Assembly (NCBI GenBank): GCA_001778495.1
Contig: MFHE01000007.1
Location: 3,996 to 67,995 of the forward strand
DNA length: 64,000 bases
Source of the DNA: Candidatus Giovannonibacteria bacterium RIFCSPHIGHO2_01_FULL_45_24
GTDB taxonomy: Bacteria > Patescibacteriota > Minisyncoccia > UBA11713 > 2-01-FULL-45-33
Direction: 5' to 3'
Shown: positions 16,764-62,480 of the stretch, piece by piece
How the letters are laid out: each line of letters starts with the position of its first letter
Position numbering within the stretch: position 1 is the first letter of the stretch
Notes under the pieces: model-generated
What the model was told of the DNA's origin: nothing
Database searches by the model: none
Seen by the model: only the letters and a program-made list of their open reading frames with translations
Made by a program: the position numbers and the translations under genes

Positions 16764-17162
16764 CTACTTTACCCGTTCGCAGCGTATATAAAGAGCCGCT
16801 ACTTCCGCGTACTTAGGCGACGGGGGGTAATACTTCACCACCTCATCAGCGCGCCGTGAAAGCAAATCCAACGGATATTCAATCATGCTTTCATTACAAC
16901 TCCCCCAAGCAAGAAGTGTGGATTCTTCTTTAACGCCGCGCAAAACAGCCGCAACTTCACCGTTTCTCATCTTAATCAAATCTCCCCTCTCCGCCGCACG
17001 GAGCTGCGAGGTCACATCAGCCTGCCGATTGGCTTCGGCAAACCGGGCCGAAAACTGTTCAGCGGTCAACGAAACTTTCGTTGGCCTTTGGCTAATATAA
17101 ACACCCACCAGTACCGCTATCGTGAATAAAACCGCGAAACCTGCCATTAATTTTTCAGACAT
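16764..17162 (-). CDS. Hypothetical membrane-anchored protein (SD-bearing orphan)
   Basis: 132 aa with one N-terminal TM helix. A strong SD (GGGAGGG) lies 8 nt before the ATG. No family recognised. Confidence 0.6.
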   Translation of the reverse strand: MSEKLMAGFAVLFTIAVLVGVYISQRPTKVSLTAEQFSARFAEANRQADVTSQLRAAERGDLIKMRNGEVAAVLRGVKEESTLLAWGSCNESMIEYPLDLLSRRADEVVKYYPPSPKYAEVAALYIRCERVK

Positions 17163-17232
17163 GAAATTACCCTCCCTTTCCTGATTTTTCTATTTGCAAT
17201 TATACTCCTATTTTAATTAAAAGTCAAGTATG

Positions 17233-17262
17233 CAAAAACCCTTATTTTATAAGGGGTTTTTA
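17233..17262. terminator. Bidirectional-looking intrinsic terminator
   Basis: aaaaaCCCTTATtttATAAGGGgttttt: a 7-bp stem flanked by an A-run and a T-run, downstream of the carboxypeptidase gene. Confidence 0.65.
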
Positions 17263-17281
17263 TTACTTGTATTCTATGGTG

Positions 17282-17309
17282 TGCAATATAACCGATCGGT
17301 TGATTTGCA
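17282..17309. promoter_or_regulatory. Operator-like palindrome S2 (TGCAA-N4-ACCGATCGGT-N4-TTGCA)
   Basis: tgcaatataACCGATCGGTtgatttgca, an intergenic site. A second inverted repeat, CATACAA-N5-TTGTATG, follows immediately at 17308-17326. Confidence 0.5.
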
Positions 17310-17340
17310 TACAATAAATTTGTATGTTCTAAATCTATTT

Positions 17341-18195
17341 TTATAATTTTATCCACTCCAAAATCCTTTTGGCGTCTGAAAAACGGCCCTGCTCCGAAGA
17401 GCCCAAAACGACGATGCCGAGGGGGCGGCCGATTGGATATTCAACGATAACCAGCAAATTGCCGCCGGCTAAATCCGTGTATCCGGTTTTGGCGCCGATG
17501 AGCGGCGTGAGCTCCGGCGCGAGAGCGTTTGTCGGCTTGAGCGCGTGCCGTATCCCCTCGCGCGAAATTATTTCCCTTGTTTCCCCGAACTGCCACAAAG
17601 GCGAGCCGAGCGATGCTTCGGCAATTTTCATAACGTCTTCCGCCGAGCCGTAGCCGCCGGCCGTATCCGTTGAAATATCAAGGCCGGAGATATTGTAAAA
17701 ATTCATTGAAAGCGCGCCAAAGGACTCCGCTTTTTGCCTCATTAAATCCAAAAACCAATCCCGATTCTTGTTCTCTTTTTGAATAGTGTGCTCAACAAGA
17801 GCAGAAATTGCGTCATTTGAAGATTCAACTATCACCATCGCCAAAAGATCGCCGATTTTAAAATGCTCTCTCACCCTTAAAGAGCTTGGCTCCGGGGCTT
17901 CTATCGCGTCTCTTGAGACAGCAACCTCTTCATCGGCCATGTTTTCATCCAAAATCACCAAAGCGCTTATGATTTTTGCGATGCTTGCCAGTGGCAATGG
18001 CTCCTTTTCATTTTTTTTTAATAAAATCTCGTGGCTCACCAAATCTTTAGCTAAAGCCGACCTCGCCTCAATCTCCGGAGCGGGAGATTGCGGAGCCGCG
18101 GACGGCCGCGCGGCCCTTTTCTCAACTTTTATAAAAGAGGAGATTAAAAGAAACAAAATGGCAAAGATAAAAATTGCCGGTTTCTTCATTTTCAT
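17341..18195 (-). CDS. D-alanyl-D-alanine carboxypeptidase (S11, PBP5-like)
   Basis: 284 aa. Signal/TM segment and the SxxK (SIAK), SxN (SSND) and KTG (KTGYT) motifs. Confidence 0.85.
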   Translation of the reverse strand: MKMKKPAIFIFAILFLLISSFIKVEKRAARPSAAPQSPAPEIEARSALAKDLVSHEILLKKNEKEPLPLASIAKIISALVILDENMADEEVAVSRDAIEAPEPSSLRVREHFKIGDLLAMVIVESSNDAISALVEHTIQKENKNRDWFLDLMRQKAESFGALSMNFYNISGLDISTDTAGGYGSAEDVMKIAEASLGSPLWQFGETREIISREGIRHALKPTNALAPELTPLIGAKTGYTDLAGGNLLVIVEYPIGRPLGIVVLGSSEQGRFSDAKRILEWIKL

Positions 18196-23637: not shown

Positions 23638-23643
23638 ATTTGT

Positions 23644-25643: not shown

Positions 25644-25681
25644 ACAGCTTTATTTTAGCATAATTTTTAATGTAGCAAAAC

Positions 25682-25734: not shown

Positions 25735-26490
25735 TTAGTTGAGCATCCCGGCGATGCTCTCCGTGATTCGCCTGATAAGAGCTGGCTTGGCCGTCTCAAA
25801 ATCCAAATTAACTTGGGTGGCTGTTGCGCTCAAACGGTTGCGGTATATAAGCCGATCGCTGTCGTAAGCGCCGGTATCCTGCTGAACGCTACTGCCCGTG
25901 CCCTGCTGGATTCTGGCTGTTTGTCTTTCAGTCACGGATCGCCCGGTCTTTTCTGATATTTGAATGTCGACGATAACTGCGTACACAACTTTCTTAACCA
26001 GCTCCCCTGCAATCCATTCTGCCGCCTGACCAATCGCGCCGCCGATGAAACCGCCCACAAAAGGTGCGTTGGGGCTATTACTCGCCAACCCTCCGATAAT
26101 TGCGCCGGCACCGGCGCCGAGAATTGGTCCGCCGTAGCTGGCATGCATCGCTTCCTGAATCGCCGGCGTGGAAGCGTCTCCCAAATAGCGAACATTTGAC
26201 TGAAGCCAGATATTCGCCTCTTCCGGGTCGCTTACCACTTTGTAGCCCTTGGCGTTCATCAGTCCAGCTAAATCGCTAAGTTTAACGTCCATCCCGCTGG
26301 TGTCTCCGAGCTCTATCCAGACGATTTTTTGAGACGCCGGAATCGGCTTCCTAAACACCGTCTCTGCTAGCCGCGCTTGGACGCTTAAATCCTTGTAGCG
26401 TAGCGCCGTAGACATAGCAGCGCAACCGCTCACAAGCAACGCATAAGCCGTCAACGCAAAAACCAACAAAAACCATTTCCATCGCTTCAT
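25735..26490 (-). CDS. traT: TraT-like surface-exclusion/complement-resistance lipoprotein
   Basis: 251 aa. Lipobox LLVSGCAAMSTAL, Gly-rich middle, VDIQISEKT, and C-terminal VNLDFETAKPALIRRITESIAGML; it aligns by eye along its whole length with F-plasmid TraT. Strong SD (AAGGAGGG). Visibly GC-richer than its neighbours. Confidence 0.8.
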   Translation of the reverse strand: MKRWKWFLLVFALTAYALLVSGCAAMSTALRYKDLSVQARLAETVFRKPIPASQKIVWIELGDTSGMDVKLSDLAGLMNAKGYKVVSDPEEANIWLQSNVRYLGDASTPAIQEAMHASYGGPILGAGAGAIIGGLASNSPNAPFVGGFIGGAIGQAAEWIAGELVKKVVYAVIVDIQISEKTGRSVTERQTARIQQGTGSSVQQDTGAYDSDRLIYRNRLSATATQVNLDFETAKPALIRRITESIAGMLN

Positions 26491-26552
26491 TTTTCGGCCC
26501 TCCTTTTCTATAAATACTCTCTAAATACACCTTAGCACAAGCTGCCCGGATA

Positions 26553-26607: not shown

Positions 26608-26680
26608 CCGCCCATAGCTCAATTGGCAGAGCAGCTCCCTTTTAAGGAGAAGGTTCCAGGTTCGATTCCTGGTGGGCGGA
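26608..26680 (+). tRNA. tRNA-Lys (anticodon UUU)
   Basis: Hand-folded cloverleaf. Acceptor CCGCCCA/TGGGCGG, D arm GCTC-AATTGGCA-GAGC, anticodon loop CTTTTAA, T arm CCAGG-TTCGATT-CCTGG, discriminator A. CCA is not encoded. Confidence 0.9.
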
Positions 26681-26708
26681 CACTTTAGAAATATGCTAAA
26701 ATAAAATC

Positions 26709-26843
26709 ATGAAAAAGCGCGTAAGAAAAGGGGCGCGGTATTTTCACGGCGATGATTTAACCAAAAAAGCGCTGGATAGAAAGCGCCGCTCCAAAACCGA
26801 AAAATGGGAGCGCCGCCCGCTGCGCTCCCGCAAGGCCCGCTAA
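26709..26843 (+). CDS. Possible 44-aa highly basic peptide
   Basis: ATG..TAA ORF encoding MKKRVRKGARYFHGDDLTKKALDRKRRSKTEKWERRPLRSRKAR. It fills an otherwise empty gap, has no SD, and is below the ORF-track cutoff. Confidence 0.25.
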   Translation: MKKRVRKGARYFHGDDLTKKALDRKRRSKTEKWERRPLRSRKAR

Positions 26844-31546: not shown

Positions 31547-31573
31547 TTAGCACTCTCCCGTCAAGACTGCTAA
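31547..31573. promoter_or_regulatory. CIRCE operator
   Basis: TTAGCACTC-N9-GACTGCTAA, one mismatch to the TTAGCACTC-N9-GAGTGCTAA consensus. It lies 26 nt upstream of the hrcA start. Confidence 0.85.
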
Positions 31574-31654
31574 CGCGCCGCAGGGCCTTTGGTTTTCCCT
31601 ATTGACTTTCATTGCTTTCTAATATAACCTCTAAATTAGGAAAGGAGGTGCCTT

Positions 31655-31906
31655 ATGGAACTAGCGTCGGTAACATTAATGGCGCAGGACCCCCAAAACG
31701 TGGTCCTTAACATCCCCGGGATGCCAAAGAGCATCCCCTTGCAGGAGGCCGCCAAAAAGGCCAGATGCATGGTGCTTAAGTTTATTAGCGGGTGCGCCCG
31801 TTACTATCTGGCTGATGCAACTGCCCCTTGGTGGTCAAAGACCCTGGTGAAGGTCATTGAGGTCATTTCAGGCCTTCTCCAGAAAAACTGCGAAGATTGC
31901 GCATAA
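31655..31906 (+). CDS. Hypothetical 83-aa protein (SD-bearing orphan)
   Basis: Strong SD (AAGGAGGT) 5 nt before the ATG. Cys-containing, with no family recognised. Confidence 0.55.
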   Translation: MELASVTLMAQDPQNVVLNIPGMPKSIPLQEAAKKARCMVLKFISGCARYYLADATAPWWSKTLVKVIEVISGLLQKNCEDCA

Positions 31907-31931
31907 AAACCCAAGAAAGGAGAAATCAACA

Positions 31932-32258
31932 ATGGCGCAACTTATTGGTTACAAAGGGGGGCTGGCAATAATTCCCGGCACTAACCCAAGCACGAAACAG
32001 CCGTGGACTGCCGAGGAATTGTTTCAAGTCGCACTCACTATGTGCGTCAAGCCGAAGGTAAAATCGATCAAGAAAACGCCGGTGCTATGGTTTGACGCGC
32101 AAGAGCTCAAGAAGCTAGGGGAGAAAGCAGCCAGCCAGGTGGAATCAGCTCTCCTAGACGCCGGTGAGGGCTTGAAGGAGTCGCTGGTCGGATTGAGTTC
32201 GCTCCACCAGCTCCTGACGAACATGGGGTTTCCGATCGAACAACCAATCGTGCCTTGA
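31932..32258 (+). CDS. Hypothetical 108-aa protein (SD-bearing orphan)
   Basis: The internal ATG is preceded by AAAGGAG at 9 nt. An intrinsic terminator follows. Confidence 0.55.
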   Translation: MAQLIGYKGGLAIIPGTNPSTKQPWTAEELFQVALTMCVKPKVKSIKKTPVLWFDAQELKKLGEKAASQVESALLDAGEGLKESLVGLSSLHQLLTNMGFPIEQPIVP

Positions 32259-32273: not shown

Positions 32274-32300
32274 GAGGGGCAAAACACCGCCCCTCTTTTT
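32274..32300 (+). terminator. Intrinsic terminator
   Basis: GAGGGGC-aaaacacc-GCCCCTC followed by ttttt. Confidence 0.8.
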
Positions 32301-32314: not shown

Positions 32315-32344
32315 TTGACAGAAACCAAAATATCCGCTTAAGAT
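32315..32344 (+). promoter_or_regulatory. Sigma70-like promoter of the 70-aa gene
   Basis: TTGACA-N18-TAAGAT, 28 nt upstream of the ATG at 32373. Confidence 0.5.
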
Positions 32345-32372
32345 TAAACTAGTTAGAGAGGAGGGCTCTATT

Positions 32373-32585
32373 ATGGCTAAAAAGGCACAAATAGAACCCG
32401 CTCAAAATTGCGAAGAAATCCTGAACATTGATGGCGTTATTTTTACCTGTGACGACCCAAAAAGGGGGCATACCGCCCCTCACTGCTCACAACGAAAAAT
32501 TAAAGTTGGTGGCTTAAACTACCATATCGTCTATATCATAACCTGGAGAAAAGCCGCCAATGTCGTCTTATCTTCGCAAAATTGA
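32373..32585 (+). CDS. Hypothetical 70-aa protein (SD-bearing orphan)
   Basis: SD GAGGAGGG 7 nt before the ATG, with its own promoter-like site and terminator. No family recognised. Confidence 0.5.
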   Translation: MAKKAQIEPAQNCEEILNIDGVIFTCDDPKRGHTAPHCSQRKIKVGGLNYHIVYIITWRKAANVVLSSQN

Positions 32586-32588: not shown

Positions 32589-32619
32589 GGCCCCGTCGTC
32601 CGCGACGGGGCCGTTTTTT
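32589..32619 (+). terminator. Intrinsic terminator
   Basis: GGCCCCGTCG-tccg-CGACGGGGCC (10-bp stem) followed by gtttttt. Confidence 0.85.
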
Positions 32620-39818: not shown

Positions 39819-39872
39819 AAAAATATTATAACACGCTCTGGACAAGATTTTAAGCAACTGCTAATTACTGCA

Positions 39873-40428: not shown

Positions 40429-40443
40429 ATATTACACTCAATA

Positions 40444-40475
40444 TAACACTTCCTTCCGATCGAGCAAAATTGTTA
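40444..40475. promoter_or_regulatory. Operator-like palindrome S4 (TAACA-N8-CGATCG-N8-TGTTA) overlapping the promoter of the PaaX-like gene
   Basis: taacacttccttcCGATCGagcaaaattgtta. On the minus strand this reads TTGCTC-N16-(TGt)TATATT, ending 11 nt before the ATG at 40428. Confidence 0.6.
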
Positions 40476-42220: not shown

Positions 42221-42248
42221 AGCGATATTGTAACACCAAAATTTGTAA

Positions 42249-42293
42249 TAAAAAAGCGGCGGACGCTTAAGCTAGCTTAACTTTGCGTCCGCC
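42249..42293 (-). terminator. Hairpin terminator overlapping the stop of the 132-aa orphan
   Basis: GGCGGACGC / GCGTCCGCC, a 9-bp stem enclosing the palindromic TTAAGCTAGCTTAA. A T-run (tttttt) follows on the minus strand. Confidence 0.6.
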
Positions 42294-42665: not shown

Positions 42666-42714
42666 CCCACAGCCCCCTTTCCATCTCAAACCTTAGCATA
42701 AGTGGGAAAAAAAA

Positions 42715-43764: not shown

Positions 43765-43783
43765 GCGGTGACATTATAATATA

Positions 43784-44158
43784 ATGGAATTAATGAAGTC
43801 CATAGGCGCAATTTGGCTGATTTTGAGCTTTACCGCCCTCGCTACGTTCGGGTTTTTGGCGATGGATGAAAATATGGCGCACAGAATCTGTTTGGCCTCA
43901 ACTCTGGCCGGCGCATTTTGCCCAGAAAACAACGCTTTCGCGGTCGCATTTTTCCACACGACGGCTTTCAAAAGTTTTTCGCTGGCCTTAATCTTCGCGC
44001 TCCTTCTGGCGGGATATGCAATCTTTTCAATGCTCGCGCCGAAGATTTTTTCTCCCGAAACAAACCTTAGCTTTGTTTTCAATTCGACTGAAACCAAACT
44101 CTCCCCGCTCGCAAAATCCCTAAGAGAGTGGCTGGCGCTCCGCGAAAACAGCCGCTAA
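43784..44158 (+). CDS. Hypothetical small membrane protein
   Basis: 124 aa with two clear hydrophobic helices. First gene of the plus-strand block. Preferred over the antisense 107-aa ORF. Confidence 0.45.
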   Translation: MELMKSIGAIWLILSFTALATFGFLAMDENMAHRICLASTLAGAFCPENNAFAVAFFHTTAFKSFSLALIFALLLAGYAIFSMLAPKIFSPETNLSFVFNSTETKLSPLAKSLREWLALRENSR

Positions 44159-45802: not shown

Positions 45803-46218
45803 TATTTTTACTCATTAGTTTCGTGGGGTTCGCCGACGCGGTCTATCTTACGGCCACGCACTACACCGGCGCCAATGTTGCCTGCGGAGTGCTTGAGGGC
45901 TGCGACAAGGTTTTGGCTAGCGCCTATTCAGTATTCGCCGGGCTACCCGTGGCACTTTTGGGCGTGATTTACTACTTGCTGCTCATTACTCTTCTTTTGT
46001 GCTACTTTGCGACAAAGCAAAAAGGGTTCCTATGGGCCGCCGCCGCGTTTACGCCCGTCGGCTTTCTGGCATCAGCATGGTTTTTGTATCTCCAGATATT
46101 CGTCATAAAAACGCTTTGCTTTTATTGCCTGATTTCGGCTATCAGCTCAACCCTGCTCCTTATTATCAGCTTATACATTTTATGGAAACAAAAAACGAAA
46201 ACGACTTTGTTGGCATAG
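45793..46218 (+). CDS. Vitamin K epoxide reductase (VKOR) family protein
   Basis: 141 aa with 4 TM helices. Loop cysteines ACGVLEGC and the active-site CFYC in the last helix. Confidence 0.8.
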   Translation: MLLIFLLISFVGFADAVYLTATHYTGANVACGVLEGCDKVLASAYSVFAGLPVALLGVIYYLLLITLLLCYFATKQKGFLWAAAAFTPVGFLASAWFLYLQIFVIKTLCFYCLISAISSTLLLIISLYILWKQKTKTTLLA

Positions 46219-46841
46219 GGCTTATTATTGCGTTTGTTCTGCTCGCTGCCATCTCGCTGATCGGCGTGAAAAAAACTGATGTGGTAAGCGCCGAATTGAA
46301 CGGCTTAAAAACAAAATTGGTCGCCGCGGGCGTGATTGACAAAAAAAGATCGGAAAACCGCTTAAATCTTCTCTGGGCTTTTGGGCTCGCCAATAAAAAC
46401 GAAATTCTTGAAAAAGGGCCTATGGCAAACCTGCGATACGACACAGGCCGCTTCGCTTCCACCGGCGGCTGGATTCCAGCACAAGGCGGCGCAATGGACC
46501 ACTACTCGCGTTATGAATTCATCAAGCTCACCGATACCCAGCAAAAACTTGTTGAAAAATTAGCCAAAAATATCTACCGGCCCTGTTGCGACAATCCGGC
46601 TTATTTTCCGGACTGCAACCACGGCATGGCCATGCTGGGGCTTTTGGAGCTTATGGCCTCCGAGGGCGCGAGCGAGAAAGAAATGTATCTCGCGGCGCTC
46701 AAAGCAAACGCCGAATGGTTTCCGGACGCTTATCACAATATCGCGAAATACTTAGCGGCAAAGGGTTTAACCCCGGACCAAGCCGGCCCGAAAGAAATTT
46801 TAAGCGCGAAATACTCCAGCGGGAACGGCGGGGCTTGCTAA
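46182..46841 (+). CDS. Hypothetical anchored protein with PCC / DCNHG cysteine motifs
   Basis: 219 aa from the internal ATG (METKNEN + TM helix). IYRPCCDNPAYFPDCNHGMAMLG. Overlaps the VKOR 3' end by 37 nt. Confidence 0.55.
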   Translation: METKNENDFVGIGLIIAFVLLAAISLIGVKKTDVVSAELNGLKTKLVAAGVIDKKRSENRLNLLWAFGLANKNEILEKGPMANLRYDTGRFASTGGWIPAQGGAMDHYSRYEFIKLTDTQQKLVEKLAKNIYRPCCDNPAYFPDCNHGMAMLGLLELMASEGASEKEMYLAALKANAEWFPDAYHNIAKYLAAKGLTPDQAGPKEILSAKYSSGNGGAC

Positions 46842-46897
46842 GAAGAGTATAATTAAATTAAAGGCCGATATTATCAGCAAATATATAAATAACAAAT

Positions 46898-47158
46898 ATG
46901 CAATTAAATAAACAAAAATTTGCTTTAGCCGCAGCCGCTGTAATGAGCGGCTGGTCAGTGATTTGCGCAGTCTTAGTCGCAATAGCGCCAAATTTGGCGC
47001 TCACCCTGTTCAGCTGGATGGTTCATCTGGTCAATCTTAAGGCGGGCGTGAGCTTCCCGGGAGCAATTTATGGGATTATTGAAGTTTTCATCCTGACCTA
47101 CATAACCGCCTACGCTTTTGCGTTGCTGCACAATAAATTTATCCAGCCCAAGACCTAG
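46898..47158 (+). CDS. Small two-helix membrane protein (DUF5676-like by eye)
   Basis: 86 aa, immediately upstream of the P-type ATPase. Confidence 0.5.
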   Translation: MQLNKQKFALAAAAVMSGWSVICAVLVAIAPNLALTLFSWMVHLVNLKAGVSFPGAIYGIIEVFILTYITAYAFALLHNKFIQPKT

Positions 47159-47160
47159 CG

Positions 47161-49293
47161 ATGAAAAAAACGATTTATACTTGCCCGATGCATCCGGAGG
47201 TGATTAGAAACGAGCCCGGGAATTGTCCGGGCTGCGGCATGGATCTTATTCTTAAAAAAGCGGTGATATCTGCTCCGTATCAACATGAAATACCCGGCGC
47301 GAAGACCGGCCCGCAGATGGCTAAAAAAATGGAGCAAGATATGCGGCGCCGCTTTTGGATTTCTTTTATTCTCTCTATTCCGATTGTTTTATATTCTCCT
47401 TTGGGGCTCAACTACTTTAAGCTTAATCTTCCGACACCGATTCCGACGAACTGGTTGCTTCTTATCCTTACAACGCCCATAGTTTTTTGGACCGGCTCAA
47501 TTTTTATCACCGGCACTTATTACTCGCTCAAGGCCAAAAAATTAAATATGTCCGTTCTAATCGCGACCGGCGTTCTGGCGGCGTATCTTTTCAGCGTTCT
47601 CTTAACCATAATCGGCGGGGATGAAACTTTTTACGAAGCGGCGGCGCTTTTGGTGACATTTGTTTTATTCGGCCATTGGATGGAGATGAAATCGCGGCGT
47701 GGCACTTCCGACGCGCTTCGCGCGCTTTTTGATCTTGTGCCGCCTCGGGCGAACGTGATTCATAATGGTAAAGAAATCACAATACCAAGCGCTGAAATTG
47801 TTCATAATGATATCGTCATATTGCGGCCCGGAGATAAAGTGCCGGTTGACGGAGTTATTGCCGAGGGCGAATCGTCAATTGACGAATCGCTGGTCACCGG
47901 CGAGTCCATTCCGGTTTTAAAAAAAATCGGCGATAAAGTCATCGGCGGCTCGGTCAACCAAACCGGCACCGTAAAATTCAAGGCGACCGGGGTCGGCTCG
48001 GAAACGGTTCTCGCGCAAATCATCAAACTCGTTGAATCCGCCCAAAATTCCAAAGCGCCCGGACAGCGGATTGCCGACAAAGCCGCCGGCTGGCTTGTGC
48101 TGGTTGCAATCGGCTCCGGAATCGCGGCGTTTCTGGGCTGGTATTTTATCGCCGGCGCGGCGCTTTTGACGGCCCTGACTTTCGCGATATCCGCTGTAGT
48201 TATCGCCTGCCCTGACGCCTTGGGGCTCGCGACTCCGACCGCTGTCGCGGTAGGCACCGGCATCGGCGCCAAACACAATATTTTAATCAAAGACGCTTCA
48301 ACCCTGGAGAATACTTCAAGAATCAATGCCATTATTCTTGACAAAACGGGAACATTAACCCTCGGGAGGCCGAAGGTCACCGATGTTATTGCTTTTAATA
48401 ACTTTAGCGAACGCGACATTTTGCGCTACGAGGCCAGCATTGAGGCCGGGTCAAATCATCCGCTTGCGAAAGCCATCTTGGAAGAAGCCGAGGGGCGCGG
48501 CGCTTTGCCGCTCAATGCGATGGAAAATTTTGAGTCGCTTGCCGGCCACGGACTCAAAGCCCGGATTGGCAATAAAATAATTTTAGCCGGAACGGAAAAA
48601 CTGCTTAAAGATAACGGAGTCTCAACCGGCGCCTGGCGCGGAGCTCTTGACCGGCTTGCCGGAGAAGGAAAAACATTAAGCTTGCTGGCTGTTGACGGAG
48701 TTTTTGCGGGCGTTGTCGCCGCCGCGGACCCTCCCAGAGCAAATTCCAAAAAGACCATCGCGGCGCTGAAAAATCTGGGGTTGGAAGTTGTGATGATTAC
48801 CGGAGACCACGCGAAAGTAGCTGAGGGTATTGGGAAAGAATTGGGCATTGACAGGGTATTCGGCGAAGTGCTTCCCGGAGACAAAGCGAGGTACGTTAAA
48901 AAATTGCGGGACGAGGGGAAATTCGTCGCGATGGTCGGAGACGGCATTAACGACGCGCCGGCGCTCGCGGAGTCCGACATAGGCATCGCCATCGGCGCCG
49001 GAACGGACGTGGCGATTGAAACCGGAAACATCGTCCTTATGAAATCAGACCCCTACGATATCGTGGCGGCGCTCCGCTTAAGCAAGGCAACCGTAATCAA
49101 AATGAAACAAAATCTTTTCTGGGCGGCAATTTACAATGTGCTTGCGATACCGATTGCGGCCGGCGTTTTTTATAATTCGCTCGGCTGGTCACTCCGCCCC
49201 GAGATTTCAGCACTCCTTATGTCCGCTTCCTCAATTATCGTGGCTACTAACGCGGTGTTATTGAAAAGAGTTGAGCCCAGCCTGCGTCAATAA
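47161..49293 (+). CDS. Heavy-metal (copper-type) P1B-ATPase with CPD transmembrane motif
   Basis: 710 aa. N-terminal YTCPMHPEVIRNEPGNCPGCGMDL metal-binding module, plus TGES, ACPDALGLATP, DKTGTLT, GDGINDAPAL, the YN (AAIYNVLAIP) and the MSASS motifs. Confidence 0.95.
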   Translation: MKKTIYTCPMHPEVIRNEPGNCPGCGMDLILKKAVISAPYQHEIPGAKTGPQMAKKMEQDMRRRFWISFILSIPIVLYSPLGLNYFKLNLPTPIPTNWLLLILTTPIVFWTGSIFITGTYYSLKAKKLNMSVLIATGVLAAYLFSVLLTIIGGDETFYEAAALLVTFVLFGHWMEMKSRRGTSDALRALFDLVPPRANVIHNGKEITIPSAEIVHNDIVILRPGDKVPVDGVIAEGESSIDESLVTGESIPVLKKIGDKVIGGSVNQTGTVKFKATGVGSETVLAQIIKLVESAQNSKAPGQRIADKAAGWLVLVAIGSGIAAFLGWYFIAGAALLTALTFAISAVVIACPDALGLATPTAVAVGTGIGAKHNILIKDASTLENTSRINAIILDKTGTLTLGRPKVTDVIAFNNFSERDILRYEASIEAGSNHPLAKAILEEAEGRGALPLNAMENFESLAGHGLKARIGNKIILAGTEKLLKDNGVSTGAWRGALDRLAGEGKTLSLLAVDGVFAGVVAAADPPRANSKKTIAALKNLGLEVVMITGDHAKVAEGIGKELGIDRVFGEVLPGDKARYVKKLRDEGKFVAMVGDGINDAPALAESDIGIAIGAGTDVAIETGNIVLMKSDPYDIVAALRLSKATVIKMKQNLFWAAIYNVLAIPIAAGVFYNSLGWSLRPEISALLMSASSIIVATNAVLLKRVEPSLRQ

Positions 49294-49337
49294 GCTTCGG
49301 CGGGCAGGCAAAATTAAAAAAATGATAAAATAAACTT

Positions 49338-49718
49338 ATGAATACTAAACTCATTACTTGGGTTTTGCGCATCGCTGTTGCCGGTGAATTTCTCGGCCAT
49401 GGCGTTTTCGCGCTTCAGGGAAAAGCGCAATGGGTCGGCTGGTTTGCTAATTTCGGCGTATCCGATGTCAGCACTGCAGCCACTCTTTTATTTTTAGTCG
49501 GGCTGATAGATATTGCCCTGGCGCTTTTAATTTTAATAAAGCCGGTTCGGATTGCGCTTTTGTGGATGGCGCTTTGGGGATTTTGGACCGCTCTTCTGCG
49601 TCCCCTCGTCGGAGAACCGATCTGGGACTTTGTTGAACGTTGGGCTAATTGGGGAGCTCCGCTCACACTTCTCCTTATGGCTGGTTGGCCTAAGTCGCTT
49701 AAAGAGTGGTTTAAATAA
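49338..49718 (+). CDS. Hypothetical 4-TM membrane protein
   Basis: 126 aa and hydrophobic. Last gene of the plus-strand block. Confidence 0.55.
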   Translation: MNTKLITWVLRIAVAGEFLGHGVFALQGKAQWVGWFANFGVSDVSTAATLLFLVGLIDIALALLILIKPVRIALLWMALWGFWTALLRPLVGEPIWDFVERWANWGAPLTLLLMAGWPKSLKEWFK

Positions 49719-49725
49719 TTTATTA

Positions 49726-49761: not shown

Positions 49762-50391
49762 CTAATCTGCCACTCTTGCGTTTTTTTTGAACCACATTAG
49801 CGCGGATGCAAACTCCAGATTGCCGCTATGCTGGCGGCATTCCACCTGAAGGATAACCGCGCCGTTTATCGCTTGCGGTTCAGCAAGCGTGATTTTCAAC
49901 TTCTCGACCAATTCCGAGATTTCCGCCGCTGTCCAGGTTTTTTTCTCACGGTTACGGTTAGCGTGCAAGTGTTCGCAGCACCAAAGCGAACACTCATGGT
50001 CAAGGTGATCATACATCACATCCGAATCCAGGTGATGCTGACACCAGTTAAGCTTCCCGCAGGCGCATTTTTTGAAAAAAACCGGCGGCAATCCGCACCG
50101 GCAACGTAAGAAAAACGGCGCGGCGGCATCTTTTTGGGGCAATGCCAAGGCAATCCATTCAAAAAGCCACTGGCCATTATTCGGCCAAGGAGTCGTATGG
50201 TCATTGCCATTTTGGGTGTGAACATATCTAAGCCATGCCCTGAAATGCTCCTCCGAAAGCTCTATCTTAAAACTGGCGTTCCTCCGCCACTCTTTCAGAA
50301 TGGCAAGATTGACTGCCAGCTCCTCCGGTTTTTGAACCACGTCTTTGAAATCAAGAAGCCAAAGCTGTGAGCCCTTCCTGGATGTCACCAT
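49762..50391 (-). CDS. Cys/His-rich hypothetical protein (SD-bearing orphan)
   Basis: 209 aa from the ATG, preceded by GGAAGGAGGT at 7 nt. Dense metal-ligand block: CRCGLPPVFFKKCACGKLNWCQHHLDSDVMYDHLDHECSLWCCEHLH. Confidence 0.6.
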   Translation of the reverse strand: MVTSRKGSQLWLLDFKDVVQKPEELAVNLAILKEWRRNASFKIELSEEHFRAWLRYVHTQNGNDHTTPWPNNGQWLFEWIALALPQKDAAAPFFLRCRCGLPPVFFKKCACGKLNWCQHHLDSDVMYDHLDHECSLWCCEHLHANRNREKKTWTAAEISELVEKLKITLAEPQAINGAVILQVECRQHSGNLEFASALMWFKKNARVAD

Positions 50392-50494
50392 TTGCAATAC
50401 CTCCTTCCTGCTTTTTTATAGCAAGAACATCCGGTTCATTGCAACGCGCAAGCTGTGGATTGTGGGCCGCGGTGAAAAATGTTATATTTTGCTT

Positions 50495-51430
50495 ATGAAT
50501 GAAAAAGCTGGCCCTAAAGACGTGTTTCTTCAGCTTTTAAATATTATCGCGCTTTACGTGAGCGCGGGGATGTTTATAAATCTGATTTTCAGCTACATCA
50601 ACATCTGGCTGCCGGACGCGCTTTCGGAAAATTATTACACGCTCCTTGCCGCGCGCTCGTCCGTCCGCTTGGCGATAGCGAGCTTGATTGTGGTCTTCCC
50701 GGTTTACATCTGGGCGACATGGTTTTTAAATAAAGGATATGCCGCAATACCGGCGAAGCGCGAGATGAAAATAAGAAAATGGCTGCTTTATTTCACGCTT
50801 TTTCTGGCAGGGATAATAATCATCGGCGATTTAGTGACATTGATTTACAACCTTTTGCAAGGCGAGCTGACGGCGAGATTTTTGCTTAAAATTTTGGCGG
50901 TACTTATAGTCGCTAGCGCCGTTTTCGGATATTATATTTTAGACATTAAAAACAAGGCGCCGCACAAAGTTTTTTGCTACGGCGCGTCTTTGATAATCCT
51001 TGCGGCGATTGCCGCCGGTTTTTTCCTTGTGGGCTCGCCGAAAGAAGAGCGCGCCAGAAAATTTGACGACCAAAGAGTCCAGCATCTTCAGCTTATCCAA
51101 TCTGAAATAATAAATTATTGGATTAAAAAAGCCGCGCTACCGAAAACCTTGGGCGAACTAGATGACCCTATCAGAGGCGTCGTCATCTCCAAAGACCCCG
51201 AATCCGGCGCGGAGTATGTTTATGAAGTTGTTGATAAAGAAAACTTCAAACTCTGCGCGACATTTAATCTGCCGAGCTTAGGCCAAGTATTATTAAAAAC
51301 AATGCGGGAACCGGCCGCTCCTCCATCGCTAGCATATTACAACGAACAAAACTGGGCGCACGGCCAAGACCAAACCTGCTTTGACCGGAAAATAGACAAG
51401 GACCTTTACAAACCGGAGAAGGTGAGGTAG
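50495..51430 (+). CDS. Polytopic membrane protein with C-terminal extracytoplasmic domain (DUF5671-like by eye)
   Basis: 311 aa from the internal ATG (MNEKAGPKDVF). About 5 TM helices, followed by a soluble domain. Confidence 0.6.
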   Translation: MNEKAGPKDVFLQLLNIIALYVSAGMFINLIFSYINIWLPDALSENYYTLLAARSSVRLAIASLIVVFPVYIWATWFLNKGYAAIPAKREMKIRKWLLYFTLFLAGIIIIGDLVTLIYNLLQGELTARFLLKILAVLIVASAVFGYYILDIKNKAPHKVFCYGASLIILAAIAAGFFLVGSPKEERARKFDDQRVQHLQLIQSEIINYWIKKAALPKTLGELDDPIRGVVISKDPESGAEYVYEVVDKENFKLCATFNLPSLGQVLLKTMREPAAPPSLAYYNEQNWAHGQDQTCFDRKIDKDLYKPEKVR

Positions 51431-51454
51431 GATAAATTAAGGAGGGAAAATAGC

Positions 51455-51766
51455 ATGAAGATTGCTCTTTTAATTCTTCTTTTTTCGTGTTTATTGGATA
51501 CTCTAAGTTCATTATGCTGCGCCAGAAAAGATAAATGGGACTGGTCATCTGAAAAAAATCCTATCATACAACGTAACGGGAAAGCATTGGGCTGGAGCCA
51601 AACGCTCTGGATGCACAATTTATGGCCTATAACACTAGGAGTTTATTATTGTGTACTGATTAGCTTTCTGTCTTCTCTTATAGCCGTCACTTTAGTACTC
51701 TTGATGTCAGCGATAAAACTAGAAGCCGCTTTGAGCAATTTTATTTATGGAATAAAACGCTCCTGA
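51455..51766 (+). CDS. Small secreted/membrane hypothetical protein (SD-bearing)
   Basis: 103 aa. AAGGAGGG lies 8 nt before the ATG. Signal-like N-terminus and a C-terminal TM helix. AT-rich. Confidence 0.45.
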   Translation: MKIALLILLFSCLLDTLSSLCCARKDKWDWSSEKNPIIQRNGKALGWSQTLWMHNLWPITLGVYYCVLISFLSSLIAVTLVLLMSAIKLEAALSNFIYGIKRS

Positions 51767-55850: not shown

Positions 55851-55882
55851 AAATAAAAACAGCCCGCTAAACTGCGCGGGCT
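55851..55882 (-). terminator. Intrinsic terminator overlapping the stop of the 178-aa orphan
   Basis: AGCCCGC-taaactgc-GCGGGCT, followed on the minus strand by gtttttattt. Confidence 0.7.
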
Positions 55883-56403
55883 TCTGGAGGTATCGGGGGG
55901 ACAATGTAAATGTAGATAATTAAAAGGAGCACGCTGATCATGAACGTTGCTATGCTTATCGGTAGCCAAGCCGAGTAACGCGGTCGCCATTTCGGGAAAA
56001 CCAGCAGGTATTCACCTGCCCGTTCTACGCTTTGTATCCCGAAGATGTCCTGCCATTGGGTTATTAGAAACCTGCGCGAAGTCCAGTACGGAATCCCGCC
56101 GTCAGCAAGCATATAACTGACGACCACCGTTCTGCTGAAAACATCGCTCCAGTGTTCTACGGAAACGACTATCTTTTGAGCGTTTTGGCTCCTTTGCCAA
56201 AATTCTTTGCCTCCCTCTCGTACGCCACCTAATTTGACTTCAGAAGCTCCGTGAAATTCTGCCTGGCCGCTGAAACCCTCCGGCAGAATCGGCCCCAGAC
56301 GAACTGGCTCCGGTAGCGGCTGTTGGATGTCCTGATAAGCAAAATAGCCGAATTGGATCGCCGCAATGAGCAAAAGTGCCCCCATGTTCCGAAACATCTT
56401 CAT
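55867..56403 (-). CDS. Hypothetical protein with N- and C-terminal TM helices (SD-bearing orphan)
   Basis: 178 aa. AGGAGGAGGA lies 5 nt before the ATG. No family recognised. Confidence 0.55.
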   Translation of the reverse strand: MKMFRNMGALLLIAAIQFGYFAYQDIQQPLPEPVRLGPILPEGFSGQAEFHGASEVKLGGVREGGKEFWQRSQNAQKIVVSVEHWSDVFSRTVVVSYMLADGGIPYWTSRRFLITQWQDIFGIQSVERAGEYLLVFPKWRPRYSAWLPISIATFMISVLLLIIYIYIVPPIPPEARAV

Positions 56404-56422
56404 AATGTCCTCCTCCTGTTTT

Positions 56423-57076: not shown

Positions 57077-57101
57077 AAAATAAAAAGCCCCGAATGGGGC
57101 T
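57077..57101 (-). terminator. Intrinsic terminator overlapping the stop of the 151-aa orphan
   Basis: AGCCCC-gaat-GGGGCT, followed on the minus strand by tttttatttt. Confidence 0.75.
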
Positions 57102-57555
57102 ATTCCGGCTCGGATTCCGCTTGCGCTTTCTGATAACGCTCTCTTATAGCGATGAGAATCTTTCTTAAAGAATTATGGACTTTAGCATCGCGCTCGTCAG
57201 CCATCGCGCCGGCTATTTTGCTGGCCGCCAAATCCAGCCGAAAAAGATCAGAATTATGTAAAAACGTCATAGTAGCCTCTAAAAAGGCCGCGGCTCTGTG
57301 CCGATCTTTATTTTTGAAATCATCCAGTACGCAATCGAGCAAATTGAGCACGACTTCCTGCATCGCTTTCCGTTCCTGTGAGCAAAACGCCCTCGCCCAC
57401 ATGTCGCCGAAATAGAGATCGTAAAGAACCCGGAAAGCTTCTGGATCGTGCCGCTCACTTACTTTATCAAAAAGCTGACGCCTTTCTTCCGGCGAGCGTG
57501 CCGCGGCATTCACTGCCACCACTCTCTCAACATCCGCCATTGTCGCTGTAACCAT
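57100..57555 (-). CDS. Hypothetical soluble helical protein (SD-bearing orphan)
   Basis: 151 aa. AAGGAGG lies 4 nt before the ATG. No family recognised. Confidence 0.55.
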   Translation of the reverse strand: MVTATMADVERVVAVNAAARSPEERRQLFDKVSERHDPEAFRVLYDLYFGDMWARAFCSQERKAMQEVVLNLLDCVLDDFKNKDRHRAAAFLEATMTFLHNSDLFRLDLAASKIAGAMADERDAKVHNSLRKILIAIRERYQKAQAESEPE

Positions 57556-57630
57556 AATGCCTCCTTTTTTCCTTATTCTTTCTCTAAAACCAAGCTAGCA
57601 TATCTCCGAATTTTTGTCTAGAATGGCATC

Positions 57631-60600: not shown

Positions 60601-60840
60601 CCGGTGACTTTAGCGGCGCTTATATCGCAAACGCGCCGGATTTTCACGAAAACCGGCGAATCAATGTATTTTTTGAAATTGCAGGACACAACCGATGAAA
60701 TTGAGGCGGTTGTTTTCCCGCGGGCGCTCCGCGACGCCGCCGAGCACATCTTGGAAAACAACTGCGTCGCCATCCGCGGCAAATACTCCTTCCGCAACGG
60801 CTCCCCCTCCATCATTGCGGAAGAGATTAAAAAAATATAA
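57631..60840 (+). CDS. dnaE: DNA polymerase III alpha subunit
   Basis: 1069 aa. PHP domain FVHLHTHSHYSLLDG, a polymerase core, and a C-terminal OB fold. Confidence 0.97.
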   Translation: MSFVHLHTHSHYSLLDGLAKIGDLVGEAKQMGMPAIALTDHGNLYGAVEFYKACKKASIKPIIGLEAYVAAGSLYEKRPGVDDKRYHLVLLSKNFEGYKNLVKLVTVSHLDGFYYKPRIDREVLKKHREGLIGLSGCMTGEIPRALLSDDEARAEKLLREYQNIFGEKNFFIEIGSHPNVPNYEFLKKRLIAFANKFGAPLVATQDVHYLKKEDASAHDVLLAVQTNTRLDDEDRLTMKDDDYSLRSPEEMRGLFSDTPEAPENTLKIAGECGLELPLGKIQLPHFEGPKGETPASYLTKLCRGGLKKRYGASASSEIKKRLGYELSVIEKTGFVEYFLVVWDFVHWAKMNKIVVGPGRGSAAGSLIAYVLEITNVDPIKYNLIFERFLNPARIEPPDIDLDFADTRRDEVIEYVAQKYGRGRVAQIITFGTMAARAAIRDAGRALGIGLALADQVAKMIPFNPNQGEHEGYLKQCLKSVSDLKNIYETNPEAKRMLDAAIKLEGVARHASVHASGVVITKEPLSDLVPLQKAAVRGDEGARQETIVTQYDMHAVLDLGLLKMDFLGLKNLSIIENALNLVKNRHGKEIDVQNLNLDDPGPYKMLGEGKTVGVFQLEGSGMTRYLKELGPTSIEDIIAMISLFRPGPMELIPSFIARKHGQEKVAYLHPKLEPILKNTYGIAVYQEQLMQIARDLAGFTMAEADILRKAIGKKIRKLLEEQKEKFVAGMIINKIPPTTAKELGELLEPFSRYGFNRSHAASYAMLGFQTAYLKYYYPLEFMTALFNADKKDTDRIAFLIKECKGMGLAVLPPTVNQSDKIFAIPENSKKEIRFGLSSIKNVGEGVVRAIIDERKKNGPYKSLADFLERAESKDLNKKSMESLAKAGALDELGERNGILANMDRILEYAKSSHLASSASQSSLFSVMPDKTSVPPLRLEKAWPATLDERLNWEKELLGLYISGHPLEKARAKLANQNLLTIEDFKNKKPASPVTLAALISQTRRIFTKTGESMYFLKLQDTTDEIEAVVFPRALRDAAEHILENNCVAIRGKYSFRNGSPSIIAEEIKKI

Positions 60841-60849
60841 AATAAGTAA

Positions 60850-62049
60850 ATGCCCGAAAGCAAGAGAAAGCGCCGCGACCATAGGGAACTGGGCCAGGAA
60901 ATGGACCTTTTTTCGTTTCATGAAATCGCGCCGGGGGCGCCTTTTTGGCACCCAAAAGGCATGATAATTTTCAGAGAGCTTGAGAAAAAAGCGCGCGAAA
61001 TCAACGACCGCGAAGGATACGACGAAATTTCAACGCCGATTTTGGTAAAAAAGGAGGTTTTTGAAAAATCAGGCCATTGGGAGCATTACCGCGACAATAT
61101 GTTCTGGTTCAAAAATCCAGTGGACGAAAACGAGGTTTTGGCCATAAAGCCGATGAATTGCCCCGAGTCAACTTATGTTTATAATTCCGAAATCAGAAGC
61201 TACCGCGATCTGCCGCTTCGGCTTGCCGAAATCGGCCGGCTTCACAGAAACGAGCTTTCAGGAACTTTGGGCGGACTTTTCCGCGTGCGGCAAATCACGA
61301 TGGACGACGCCCATGTTTTCGTGCGTCCGGACCAAACTTCGGAAGAAATTTTCAATACACTAAAAATAATCAGCGATTTTTATGAAATGCTTGGTTTTGA
61401 ACCTCGGTATTTTTTAGCCACGCGCCCCAAAAAAGCTTTGGGAGACAAAAAGGCATGGGATATGGCCGAGAACGCGCTGAAAGAAGCGCTAAAAAAAGCA
61501 AAAATAAAATACGAAGTCGCAGAGGGCGAGGGCGCTTTTTACGGACCCAAAGTGGAAGTTCATATTAAAGACAGCCAAGGGCGGGATTGGCAGCTTGGAA
61601 CCGCCCAGCTGGATTTGGTTATGCTTCCGGAAAAATTTGATCTGGCTTACATAGACGAAAACGGCGCGCGTCAAAAACCAATGGTTATACACCGCGCGAT
61701 TTTCGGGTCATTTGAAAGATTTATCGGAATTTTACTTGAACACTTTGACGGCGCGCTCCCATTTTGGCTGTCCCCAACTCAAGTCGCCGTTCTGACAATA
61801 AACGAAAAGGTTTCGGACTACGCTAAAAAGGTTTATAAAGAGCTTAAAGCAAAAAATATCCGCGTTGAGCTGGACTCGCGCAACGAAACCATCGCCAAAA
61901 AAATCAGGGATGCCGAAGTCCAGCGCGTCCCTTATCTTTTGGTGATTGGCGAAAAAGAAATTAAAGAGAATAAAGTTGCCGTCCGCGAGCGCGACAAAGG
62001 GGACTTGGGGGCAAAAACTCTTGAGGAATTTTTAAAAATGATAAAATAA
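60850..62049 (+). CDS. thrS: Threonyl-tRNA synthetase, catalytic + anticodon-binding domains only
   Basis: 399 aa. Begins at the RDHRELGQEMDLF segment and has class II motifs (RLAEIGRLHRNE, FYGPKVE). No TGS or editing domain. Confidence 0.9.
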   Translation: MPESKRKRRDHRELGQEMDLFSFHEIAPGAPFWHPKGMIIFRELEKKAREINDREGYDEISTPILVKKEVFEKSGHWEHYRDNMFWFKNPVDENEVLAIKPMNCPESTYVYNSEIRSYRDLPLRLAEIGRLHRNELSGTLGGLFRVRQITMDDAHVFVRPDQTSEEIFNTLKIISDFYEMLGFEPRYFLATRPKKALGDKKAWDMAENALKEALKKAKIKYEVAEGEGAFYGPKVEVHIKDSQGRDWQLGTAQLDLVMLPEKFDLAYIDENGARQKPMVIHRAIFGSFERFIGILLEHFDGALPFWLSPTQVAVLTINEKVSDYAKKVYKELKAKNIRVELDSRNETIAKKIRDAEVQRVPYLLVIGEKEIKENKVAVRERDKGDLGAKTLEEFLKMIK

Positions 62050-62064
62050 AACAGCGGCCTGTGT

Positions 62065-62448
62065 CTACAAGCCGCGCACATGCTGGGCCGCCTTCCAAAA
62101 ATCGCTAAGTTCTTGCTGTCGGATTTCGTCTTCTGCAGCTGCCTCCAGCAACGCATCCTCGATAACTGCCTGCGGGATTGATGAAGCAACCGACGAATTC
62201 AATCCAATTTCCTCAAGAATATTGAGAAAACTTATGGTGTCCAGACACTCAATACAAGCGGCTTTCTCGTCCGGATAGTAATCAATGCGTTGGCAGCCAT
62301 GTTGCGAATGAACACGCTCCTGCCTAAAAAATCTTCGCTCCGTTGAAGTTTTCGGCGCGTCCAGCACCAATTCAGACAGGCCCAAGGCGTCGCTTAGGCC
62401 AAGCGGCAAATCGCGAATATTCAAAACCTTAAATTTTTTAATTGACAT
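62065..62448 (-). CDS. Hypothetical 127-aa protein (SD-bearing orphan)
   Basis: Start placed at MSIKKF, preceded by AGGAGGA at 7 nt. No family recognised. Confidence 0.5.
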   Translation of the reverse strand: MSIKKFKVLNIRDLPLGLSDALGLSELVLDAPKTSTERRFFRQERVHSQHGCQRIDYYPDEKAACIECLDTISFLNILEEIGLNSSVASSIPQAVIEDALLEAAAEDEIRQQELSDFWKAAQHVRGL

Positions 62449-62480
62449 ATAACTATCCTCCTGATTCAATACTAGCAAAA

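Follow-up and report, generated by a model that had tools for sequence, protein, structure and literature searches.

Candidate leaderless, coupled and Shine-Dalgarno-led gene starts at a locus of the uncultured bacterium Candidatus Giovannonibacteria

Introduction

The stretch of DNA analyzed here (the window) comprises 64,000 nucleotides of contig MFHE01000007.1 (positions 3,996 to 67,995, forward strand; assembly GCA_001778495.1) of Candidatus Giovannonibacteria bacterium RIFCSPHIGHO2_01_FULL_45_24, a tiny uncultured groundwater bacterium of the Rifle aquifer that belongs to the Parcubacteria within the candidate phyla radiation (CPR). The window has a GC content of about 47%, carries one tRNA-Lys gene (26608-26681) and no further Rfam match, and contains eleven mostly uncharacterized genes that begin with a strong Shine-Dalgarno (SD) sequence, lying among core genes that have none. 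In this work we analyze these starts in their transcriptional context and put forward, as the probable account, that three designs of gene start coexist in this genome and that what separates SD-led from SD-less genes is the architecture of their transcripts.

The CPR, or Patescibacteria, account for a large part of bacterial diversity, possess reduced ribosomes and are mostly uncultured, and the way in which they start translation is essentially unstudied. Our literature search on this subject found just a survey of the loss of the anti-SD sequence (PMC9297842) and a passing remark on a non-SD motif (PMC6509639), and it returned no paper that places a CPR genome in the GeneMarkS-2 scheme or describes the pattern reported below.

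Materials and methods

A curated table of 88 genes was compiled for the window and two further pieces of the same contig (4.6 kb and 8.4 kb). It was derived from public gene calls after correcting several starts (rpsD to 36128, the FtsA-like gene to 39818), splitting smc from rnc, placing L32 on the minus strand and adding L36. SD strength was defined as the duplex energy against 5'-GAUCACCUCCUUA-3', with all 1839 ATG triplets providing the chance background. Related loci are designated by numbers preceded by L. Comparisons also drew on CP066687.1, a complete related Ca. Giovannonibacteria genome (651,549 bp) with approximately 80-88% nucleotide identity over the aligned part.

Results

SD-led genes of the window

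The eleven SD-led genes of the window, with their SD sites and duplex energies, are the following.

16764-17162, minus strand: 132-aa membrane-anchored hypothetical protein; SD AAGGGAGGG at 17170-17178, -11.8 kcal/mol
25735-26490, minus strand: TraT-like lipoprotein; SD AAAGGAGGG at 26498-26506, -12.1 kcal/mol
31655-31906, plus strand: 83-aa hypothetical protein, first of an SD-led pair; SD AAAGGAGGTGC at 31641-31651, -15.3 kcal/mol
31932-32258, plus strand: 108-aa hypothetical protein, second of the pair; SD AAAGGAG at 31916-31922, -9.1 kcal/mol
32373-32585, plus strand: 70-aa hypothetical protein; SD GAGGAGGG within 32357-32369, -12.8 kcal/mol
42267-42665, minus strand: 132-aa helical protein of a very large uncharacterised family; SD AAAGGGGG within 42669-42680, -10.8 kcal/mol
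49762-50391, minus strand: 209-aa Cys/His-rich hypothetical protein; SD GAAGGAGGTA at 50398-50407, -13.1 kcal/mol
51455-51766, plus strand: 103-aa hypothetical protein with signal peptide or membrane segment; SD TTAAGGAGGGAA at 51437-51448, -13.2 kcal/mol
55867-56403, minus strand: 178-aa hypothetical protein with two transmembrane segments; SD GGAGGAGGA at 56408-56416, -12.1 kcal/mol
57100-57555, minus strand: 151-aa helical hypothetical protein; SD AAAGGAGGC at 57559-57567, -11.6 kcal/mol
62065-62448, minus strand: 127-aa hypothetical protein; SD CAGGAGGA at 62456-62463, -10.3 kcal/mol

The original prediction, whose text spoke of twelve such genes while listing eleven, had assigned a purine-rich motif to each listed start, and all eleven motifs are in place. 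Their duplexes span -9.1 to -15.3 kcal/mol, the paired stretch stopping 3-7 nt short of the ATG and the GGAGG core ending 4-10 nt before it, and the sites are partly extended to AAGGAGGTG or GAGGTGA, complementary to ...UCACCUCCUU. Scoring of anti-SD pairing, which had been proposed for the whole genome and was performed on the 88 genes, yields a bimodal energy histogram with a second mode at -11 to -15 kcal/mol: 12 genes reach -9 kcal/mol or lower, and 9 reach -11 kcal/mol or lower where 1.7 would be expected from the 1839 ATGs. The core genes named as SD-less are so without exception, every one of these housekeeping genes pairing more weakly than about -2.7 kcal/mol, and non-SD genes pair worse than random ATGs (median -1.75 vs -3.1 kcal/mol, p=1e-7).

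The suggestion that the SD-led genes form a distinct class is well supported, for they open transcription units, are shorter (median 132 vs 239 aa), mostly lack a Pfam domain (10/12 vs 15/76 other genes, p=3e-5) and more often have terminators. All seven terminators originally proposed were found and an eighth was added at 62075-62054(-); an intrinsic terminator, consisting of a GC-rich hairpin and a T-run just after the stop codon, thus accompanies 8 of the 11 window genes, and under one uniform criterion terminators follow 7/12 SD genes and 6/76 others (p=1.5e-4). Ten of the eleven proteins have no significant match in Pfam, PHROGs, PADLOC or NCBIfam, in keeping with their description as hypothetical, and the eleventh is TraT-like; because matches to PHROGs, PADLOC and NCBIfam are missing, phage, defence or toxin-antitoxin readings of the orphans are unsupported. 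Two parts of the original description need amendment. The genes do mostly stand alone between core operons, but those for the 83-, 108- and 70-aa proteins form a three-gene islet, and the class does not consist of orphans only, given that just outside the window an M16 peptidase gene is SD-led and efp is weakly so.

Leaderless-type starts and transcript architecture

SD-led genes represent 12 of the 50 genes that come first in their unit and none of the 38 internal genes (p=9e-4), all of which overlap or directly adjoin the gene before them on their strand. Upstream of 34 such coupled genes, within the preceding coding sequence, the composition is 43% A and 16% G. The best -10 boxes of the SD genes lie 16-38 nt upstream of the start codon, and a consensus promoter scan returns promoter-like matches at three of them (17227-17199, 32315-32344 and 51405-51433).

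When the 45-70 nt upstream of all starts are read, a recurrent and often extended -10 box emerges that ends 6-8 nt before the ATG of SD-less genes that open units, with TGCTAAAAT, TGTTAAAAT, TGTTACAAT, TGCTATACT and TGTTATAAT as examples. A -10 box occurs 4-11 nt upstream of 23/88 genes, as against 5% of random ATGs (p=4e-11), with a spacer peak at 6-8 nt, and correction of its start adds the FtsA-like gene to the set, for a total of about 24/88. The consensus scan agrees at leaderless distance for the FtsA-like gene (39853-39825), mnmA (43802-43773) and the promoter at 43758-43785. The sites located individually are as follows.

16681-16686, minus strand: mraY -10 box TGTTAAAAT, 8 nt before the ATG at 16672
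25652-25657, minus strand: -10 box TGCTAAAAT of the ThiF/E1-like gene, 8 nt before the ATG at 25643
39825-39853, minus strand: promoter TTAAAA-17-(TG)TATAAT of the FtsA/PilM-like gene, ending 6 nt before the ATG at 39818
42227-42232, minus strand: alaS -10 box TGTTACAAT, 6 nt before the ATG at 42220
43758-43785, plus strand: perfect consensus promoter TTGACA-16-TATAAT (12/12 matches), upstream of the second ATG of a 124-aa gene
57619-57624, plus strand: dnaE -10 box TAGAAT, 6 nt before the ATG at 57631, with the same arrangement in CP066687
60838-60843, plus strand: thrS -10 box TAAAAT, 6 nt before the ATG at 60850

Core orthologues in relatives keep the -10 box next to the ATG. In L008 mraY likewise has an extended -10 box, TGCTAGAAT, near its ATG, and in L013 and L023 alaS shows TGCTAAAAT 6 nt before it. 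For the 124-aa gene we infer that translation begins at the second ATG (43793), where the expected transcription start of the 43758-43785 promoter falls. An extremely basic 44-aa open reading frame (ORF) directly after the tRNA-Lys gene (26709-26843, plus strand), called in some public annotations, also presents a textbook signal of the leaderless type (TGCTAAAAT, 6 nt, ATG).

Related loci

The mixture recurs in independent regions of related genomes. SD-led genes amount to 4-5/17 in L113, including every gene of a PrkA-DUF444-SpoVR operon, 0/20 in L115, 4-6/23 in L117, including a cold-shock-domain protein, 0-1/17 in L118 and 5/10 in L120, including a tRNA-synt_1b-type synthetase. SpoVR in L113 is one of a few internal operon genes of the relatives that do have an SD. 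On pooling, 33/205 genes are SD-led, and a Pfam domain is missing in 23/33 of these versus 46/172 of the rest (p=4e-6). The link between SD and orphan status is strong, not absolute. Equally strong SDs on core genes had been named in advance as an observation that would speak against two gene classes; no named core gene of the window has one, but the synthetase, the cold-shock-domain protein and the PrkA operon of the relatives do, as does the M16 peptidase gene.

Anti-SD sequence

SD sites that function and are under selection imply a canonical CCUCC anti-SD in 16S rRNA. Enrichment of SDs at starts, their correct spacing, their retention in orthologues and the extended SDs together argue indirectly for a working canonical anti-SD in the host lineage, with an expected 16S rRNA 3' tail of ...GGAUCACCUCCUU. 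The window holds no rRNA, and a regular-expression search of 116 loci (1.06 Mb) found no universal 16S motifs.

Individual SD-led genes and their surroundings

The promoters, terminators and relatives of the SD-led genes were annotated one by one, in part by eye. The gene at 16764-17162 has the promoter TTGACT-17-TATAAT at 17227-17199 (11/12 consensus matches) and no convincing terminator, and it is missing from L008 between the same neighbours, dacB and mraY. The TraT-like gene, whose product matches NCBIfam TraT with E=1e-41, is the sole one of the eleven near the tRNA-Lys gene. It has a putative promoter, TTGCAA-18-TAAGGT at 26558-26529 (by eye), and a terminator at 25706-25690(-). Its orthologue in L120 (77%) follows dnaJ and a small hypothetical gene and keeps both SD and terminator, and L008 lacks the gene between the same neighbours.

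The islet opens with the 83-aa gene, which is divergent to the CIRCE-controlled hrcA-grpE-dnaK operon and has a promoter-like TTGACT-15-TATAAC at 31602-31628 (by eye). The 108-aa gene follows 25 nt past it and ends in a terminator at 32274-32295(+), whereas the 70-aa gene has its own promoter (TTGACA-18-TAAGAT at 32315-32344) and a 10-bp terminator (32589-32612(+)). Core proteins of the window and L119 are 70-91% identical, in contrast to 36% for the 83-aa and 27% for the 108-aa protein; yet L119 has nearly the same promoter and leader/SD region at the 83-aa gene, and the 108-aa orthologue keeps its SD and terminator. For the 70-aa orthologue (73% identity) promoter, SD and terminator are all kept. 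A hairpin in the conserved 83-aa leader that would sequester the SD by pairing CCUCU with GGAGG was considered and dropped, as transcription is expected to start at CCUCU or downstream of it. On the other side of this intergenic region, a CIRCE-like inverted repeat, TTAGCAGTC-N9-GAGTGCTAA (about 31550-31580, minus strand), overlaps the hrcA-like promoter that heads hrcA-grpE-dnaK-dnaJ, and it too is kept in L119.

The gene at 42267-42665 has an extended -10 box, TGCTAAGGT, at 42698-42690 (by eye) and a terminator at 42268-42254(-). L023 contains an SD-bearing orthologue, and CP066687 has a different gene in its place. The AlphaFold model of the protein is all-helical (pLDDT 84), without a fold match in the PDB and with an empty profile search against PDB sequences, and an HTH_29 match falls below threshold. 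The family has no Pfam model, and it lies overwhelmingly behind the 3232 representative-cluster matches of a concatenated query of ten SD-led proteins. A metagenome scan with the family returns, besides L023, mostly high-GC soil contigs from outside the CPR. In soil contigs of 50-70% GC (L024, L033, L049, L051, L077 and L089) the family member comes last in a conserved Fe-S operon, after genes for an IscA-like protein, SufB/D, a cysteine desulfurase-type aminotransferase and an Rrf2 regulator; in the window and in L023 the gene adjoins mnmA, which encodes a sulfur-relay tRNA thiolase.

The 209-aa gene has a promoter-like TTGCAA-18-TATAAA at 50444-50415 and a bulged terminator hairpin at about 49751-49727(-) (both by eye) with a T-run to about 49718; its CP066687 orthologue (86%) keeps AAGGAGG despite a changed leader. 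The 103-aa gene has a promoter-like site at 51405-51433 and, after its stop codon, just a weak hairpin with a T-run, and its orthologue in CP066687 (98%) carries AAGGGGG as SD. Lying 19 nt past rnhB, the 178-aa gene may be co-transcribed with it; its terminator (55882-55861(-)) overlaps the stop codon, and in CP066687 the gene is missing and its slot is taken by a different SD-led gene of 137 aa. The 151-aa gene has a promoter-like TAGACA-17-(TG)TAGCTT at 57620-57592 (by eye) and a terminator at 57101-57086(-), and its orthologue in CP066687 (80%) uses another SD, GGGAGGG. The 127-aa gene, which ends in the added terminator, is preceded by an extended -10 box, TGCTAGTAT, at 62477-62469 (by eye).

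Other genes of the window and its flanks

The slot between copA and the DUF5671 gene varies in content among three relatives. CP066687 lacks 46184-47160, whose 219-aa gene and DUF5676 gene are both found in L023, and 49258-49720, which contains a DoxX-like gene of 126 aa with a promoter of leaderless type. The SD-led M16 peptidase gene, located in the 4.6 kb left of the window (L017 13908-15161, L018 13885-15138), is clearly atypical in composition. Its orientation differs between these two strain-level contigs, which indicates either an inversion or a difference in assembly.

The motif TTTTGCTCGATCGGAAG[A/G]AAGTGTTAT is repeated just upstream of the FtsA-like gene (about 39860-39890, minus strand) and of a PaaX-like gene (about 40440-40470, minus strand), and CGATCG palindromes occur at promoters of PaaX_M-domain genes in L113, L115 and L117 and, in L115, also before recR and a radical-SAM gene. 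The repeated CGATCG-type motif is probably the operator of PaaX-like regulators, of which the window has at least two copies (11164-11814 and 39907-40428).

A restriction-modification pair (an MjaV-like endonuclease and an N6/N4 methyltransferase) lies between cysS and ctp (2824-4765, minus strand). A second N6/N4 methyltransferase is encoded just right of the window (L020 1508-2785), near genes for a sigma-70 region 4 protein, a DUF8128 protein and a VirD4/TraG-like coupling protein. For the ThiF/E1-like, nitroreductase-like and histidine kinase genes, the only relatives outside Giovannonibacteria (36-40% identity) come from Bacteroidota and unclassified contigs. In the Bacteroidota contigs L009-L012 the ThiF-like gene has at least the nitroreductase-like gene and a histidine-kinase homologue no more than a few kb away, which suggests a common gene cluster.

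For rpsD (35526-36128, minus strand), Prodigal-type public calls begin at 36092, past an internal AGGAG, but the N-terminal zinc-ribbon motif MRANCKTCRRLG places the true start at 36128, overlapping the rpsK stop codon. The case is a warning that callers which reward an SD misplace starts in genomes of this kind.

Discussion

Three designs of gene start

The distribution of SD sites and -10 boxes is best accounted for, in our view and with fair confidence, by three start-site designs that coexist in one genome, leadered transcripts being set apart from leaderless or coupled ones by transcription starts that we place from promoter positions. In the first design, which would serve the first genes of most core operons, a -10 box (often extended, TGnTAnAAT) sits 6-8 nt before the ATG; leaderless transcription that starts at or next to the start codon leaves no room for an SD. 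In the second, downstream operon genes with an A-rich, G-poor and SD-less upstream region would be coupled to the preceding gene, probably through re-initiation or SD-independent loading. In the third, a minority (12/88 genes here, about 16% at related loci) would be transcribed from a promoter 13-40 nt upstream with a short 5' untranslated region and a strong GGAGG-type SD, in units that usually comprise a single ORF and often a private hairpin and T-run terminator. This last design would be used mainly for small, lineage-restricted, fast-evolving and patchy genes that stand alone between core operons. For such genes the second design is impossible, and the first demands exact spacing between promoter and ATG.

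Several considerations weigh against this account. Of the 88 genes, 19 cannot be assigned cleanly to any of the designs, and leaderless transcription is proposed from where the -10 box lies. Coverage is confined to about 77 kb of the host genome and about 130 kb of relatives. Public gene starts stem from callers that reward an SD, which led to a wrong start in at least one case (rpsD, 36092). The anti-SD motif CCTCCT was detected in just 48% of Parcubacteria 16S sequences in a survey whose authors suggested that the lineages concerned form no SD helices (Tsurumaki et al. 2022, PMC9297842). Lastly, coding regions show no depletion of the SD-like words GGAGG, AGGAG and AGGAGG (500 synonymous-codon shuffles, z -0.3 to +0.7), a test that we count on this side although it is independent evidence neither for nor against a working anti-SD.

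Alternative explanations

The original prediction had raised the possibility of a foreign or recently acquired gene class. On this explanation the SD-led genes would be horizontally acquired cassettes that brought promoter, SD and terminator along from a donor that uses SDs and have not yet adapted to the SD-less style of the host. We consider it unlikely, even though part of the evidence is what acquisition would produce. The genes are short, domain-poor and patchy: 4/7 testable SD genes are absent from the nearest available relative, as opposed to 3/28 non-SD genes (p=0.018), and the slots concerned are often occupied by other SD-led orphans (of 137 and 109 aa in CP066687, of 80 and 157 aa in L023). 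Their codon use is slightly off, with a codon-adaptation index of 0.70 vs 0.74 (p=5e-4; length-matched 0.007), and their GC content is slightly higher (0.49 vs 0.47, p=0.05), with no significant difference in GC at third codon positions (GC3). Homologues of the TraT-like protein occur in Proteobacteria at 32-33% identity, the 42267-42665 family resides mainly in the soil contigs of 50-70% GC mentioned above, and the SD-led M16 peptidase gene has a GC of 0.56 and a GC3 of 0.68. Against its counterpart in CP066687 (L013 10001-10312) the 103-aa gene has a dS of 0.06 where neighbouring genes have 0.6-0.9, which suggests either that the two species exchanged it recently or that its nucleotide sequence is under additional constraint.

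The shifts in composition are, however, small and go both ways, single SD-led genes spanning GC 0.375-0.56. Orthologues in other Giovannonibacteria species exist for 8/11 SD genes. Seven occupy the same genomic slot, namely those of the 209-, 103- and 151-aa genes in CP066687, of the 132-aa gene at 42267 in L023 and of the 83-, 108- and 70-aa genes in L119; the eighth, that of the TraT-like gene in L120, has a similar context on the dnaJ side. The SD is kept in 8/8 of these, even where the leader has changed, and promoter and terminator are also kept where checked, down to a core protein identity of 70%. The dN/dS ratios of three SD-gene pairs against CP066687 (0.21 for the 209-aa gene, 0.14, and 0.28 for the 151-aa gene) resemble those of core genes (0.10-0.25) and speak for long-term purifying selection. 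No integrase, transposase or phage gene flanks any of the eleven, and variable genes are not all SD-led: starts of leaderless type are found at the DoxX-like insert and, in CP066687, at the 231-aa gene and the PaaX-like gene. From these sequence comparisons we conclude that the SD-led class would be a stable design of mostly lineage-restricted, fast-evolving and patchy genes, not a set of recent imports; what stands of the original suggestion is the patchiness and the slight deviation in codon use.

A second alternative holds that the SD-led genes form a translational regulon, switched jointly through anti-SD availability or the balance of initiation factors, for example the level of bS21 or IF3. 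In Flavobacterium johnsoniae, rare SD-bearing mRNAs such as rpsU respond to the bS21 content of the ribosome. The discreteness of the class, the retention of every orthologous SD and the nearly invariant promoter and leader of the 83-aa gene, divergent to hrcA-grpE-dnaK and fronting a protein conserved at 36%, would all be compatible with such control. We nevertheless give it a slim chance, since the SD genes have no function, leader motif or promoter type in common, the SD-led genes of relatives are functionally unrelated (an aminoacyl-tRNA synthetase, a cold-shock-domain protein, the PrkA operon) and transcript architecture is the simpler account.

That chance AGGAGG-ATG pairs in intergenic DNA gave rise to spurious small ORFs is scarcely credible and largely refuted: the genes are indeed short and without known domains, Prodigal-type callers reward an SD (as at rpsD 36092) and the 70-aa gene is uncalled in two public annotations of identical sequence, but sites at or below -11 kcal/mol exceed chance expectation (9 vs 1.7), 7/11 genes start at the first start codon of their ORF, the ORFs are bracketed by promoters and terminators, other species have intact orthologous ORFs (dN/dS 0.14-0.28), and 10/10 proteins looked up (the TraT-like one was seen separately) are called in several independent assemblies.

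Comparison with known systems

The three-design account has its nearest likeness in group C of the GeneMarkS-2 scheme, exemplified by Mycobacterium tuberculosis and Deinococcus, in which leaderless starts have a Pribnow box at a distance of 6-8 nt and leadered genes a ribosome-binding site (Lomsadze et al. 2018, PMC6028130). Like that group, the host combines in one genome leaderless-type first genes with a -10 box and SDs on leadered first genes. It differs in that internal genes of group C are modelled with an SD, as opposed to 0/38 in the host, and in that the host's SD-led set is small (about 14-16%) and rich in orphan single-gene units with private terminators.

In Haloferax volcanii and other haloarchaea, transcripts are mostly leaderless and internal genes largely lack a functional SD. 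The leaderless majority and the SD-less internal genes are thus shared with the host, and to our knowledge a discrete SD-led accessory class has not been described there. These organisms are archaea, however, with another type of promoter at another distance (about 26 nt in group D; PMC6028130).

Bacteroidota (group B) resemble the host in that most genes are SD-less with A-rich upstream regions and a handful keep strong SDs. In group B a single non-SD motif is found ahead of every gene and is ruled out as a promoter (PMC6028130), whereas the recurrent motif of the host is a -10 promoter box at leaderless distance; any link to bS21 would be drawn by analogy. The Parcubacteria surveyed in PMC9297842, which include a subgroup that lacks the motif and uL1, belong to the same superphylum, and the predominance of SD-less genes in the host agrees with that survey, but the strong, well-spaced and retained SDs of the host argue for an anti-SD that still works. 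In Roizmanbacteria, the Prodigal motif TAA was mentioned in passing before 353/946 ORFs (PMC6509639). This AT-rich non-SD motif upstream of many genes is compatible with -10 boxes of the TAAAAT type, although that study neither reads the motif as leaderless nor contrasts it with an SD-led class.

Conclusions

A further-reaching idea, to which we attach little credence, is that SD/anti-SD pairing has been kept just for a small, stable set of self-contained, fast-evolving small-protein genes. If true, it would mean two separately tunable channels of translation, one with 70S ribosomes for the leaderless core and one with 30S subunits and SDs for the accessory set, and it would make the presence of an SD a simple sequence marker of the flexible gene pool in CPR genomes. 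The SD-led products include some membrane or secreted proteins, which could play a part in interactions with a host organism.

Should the pattern of the window prove genome-wide, it would provide a testable model of initiation for a Parcubacterium, in which the core is leaderless, genes within operons are coupled without an SD and the accessory set is SD-led. The canonical anti-SD that it predicts would qualify the view that many Parcubacteria form no SD helices, and a strong SD would make it easy to flag, from sequence, small lineage-specific genes with independent expression as candidates for roles in the symbiotic lifestyle.

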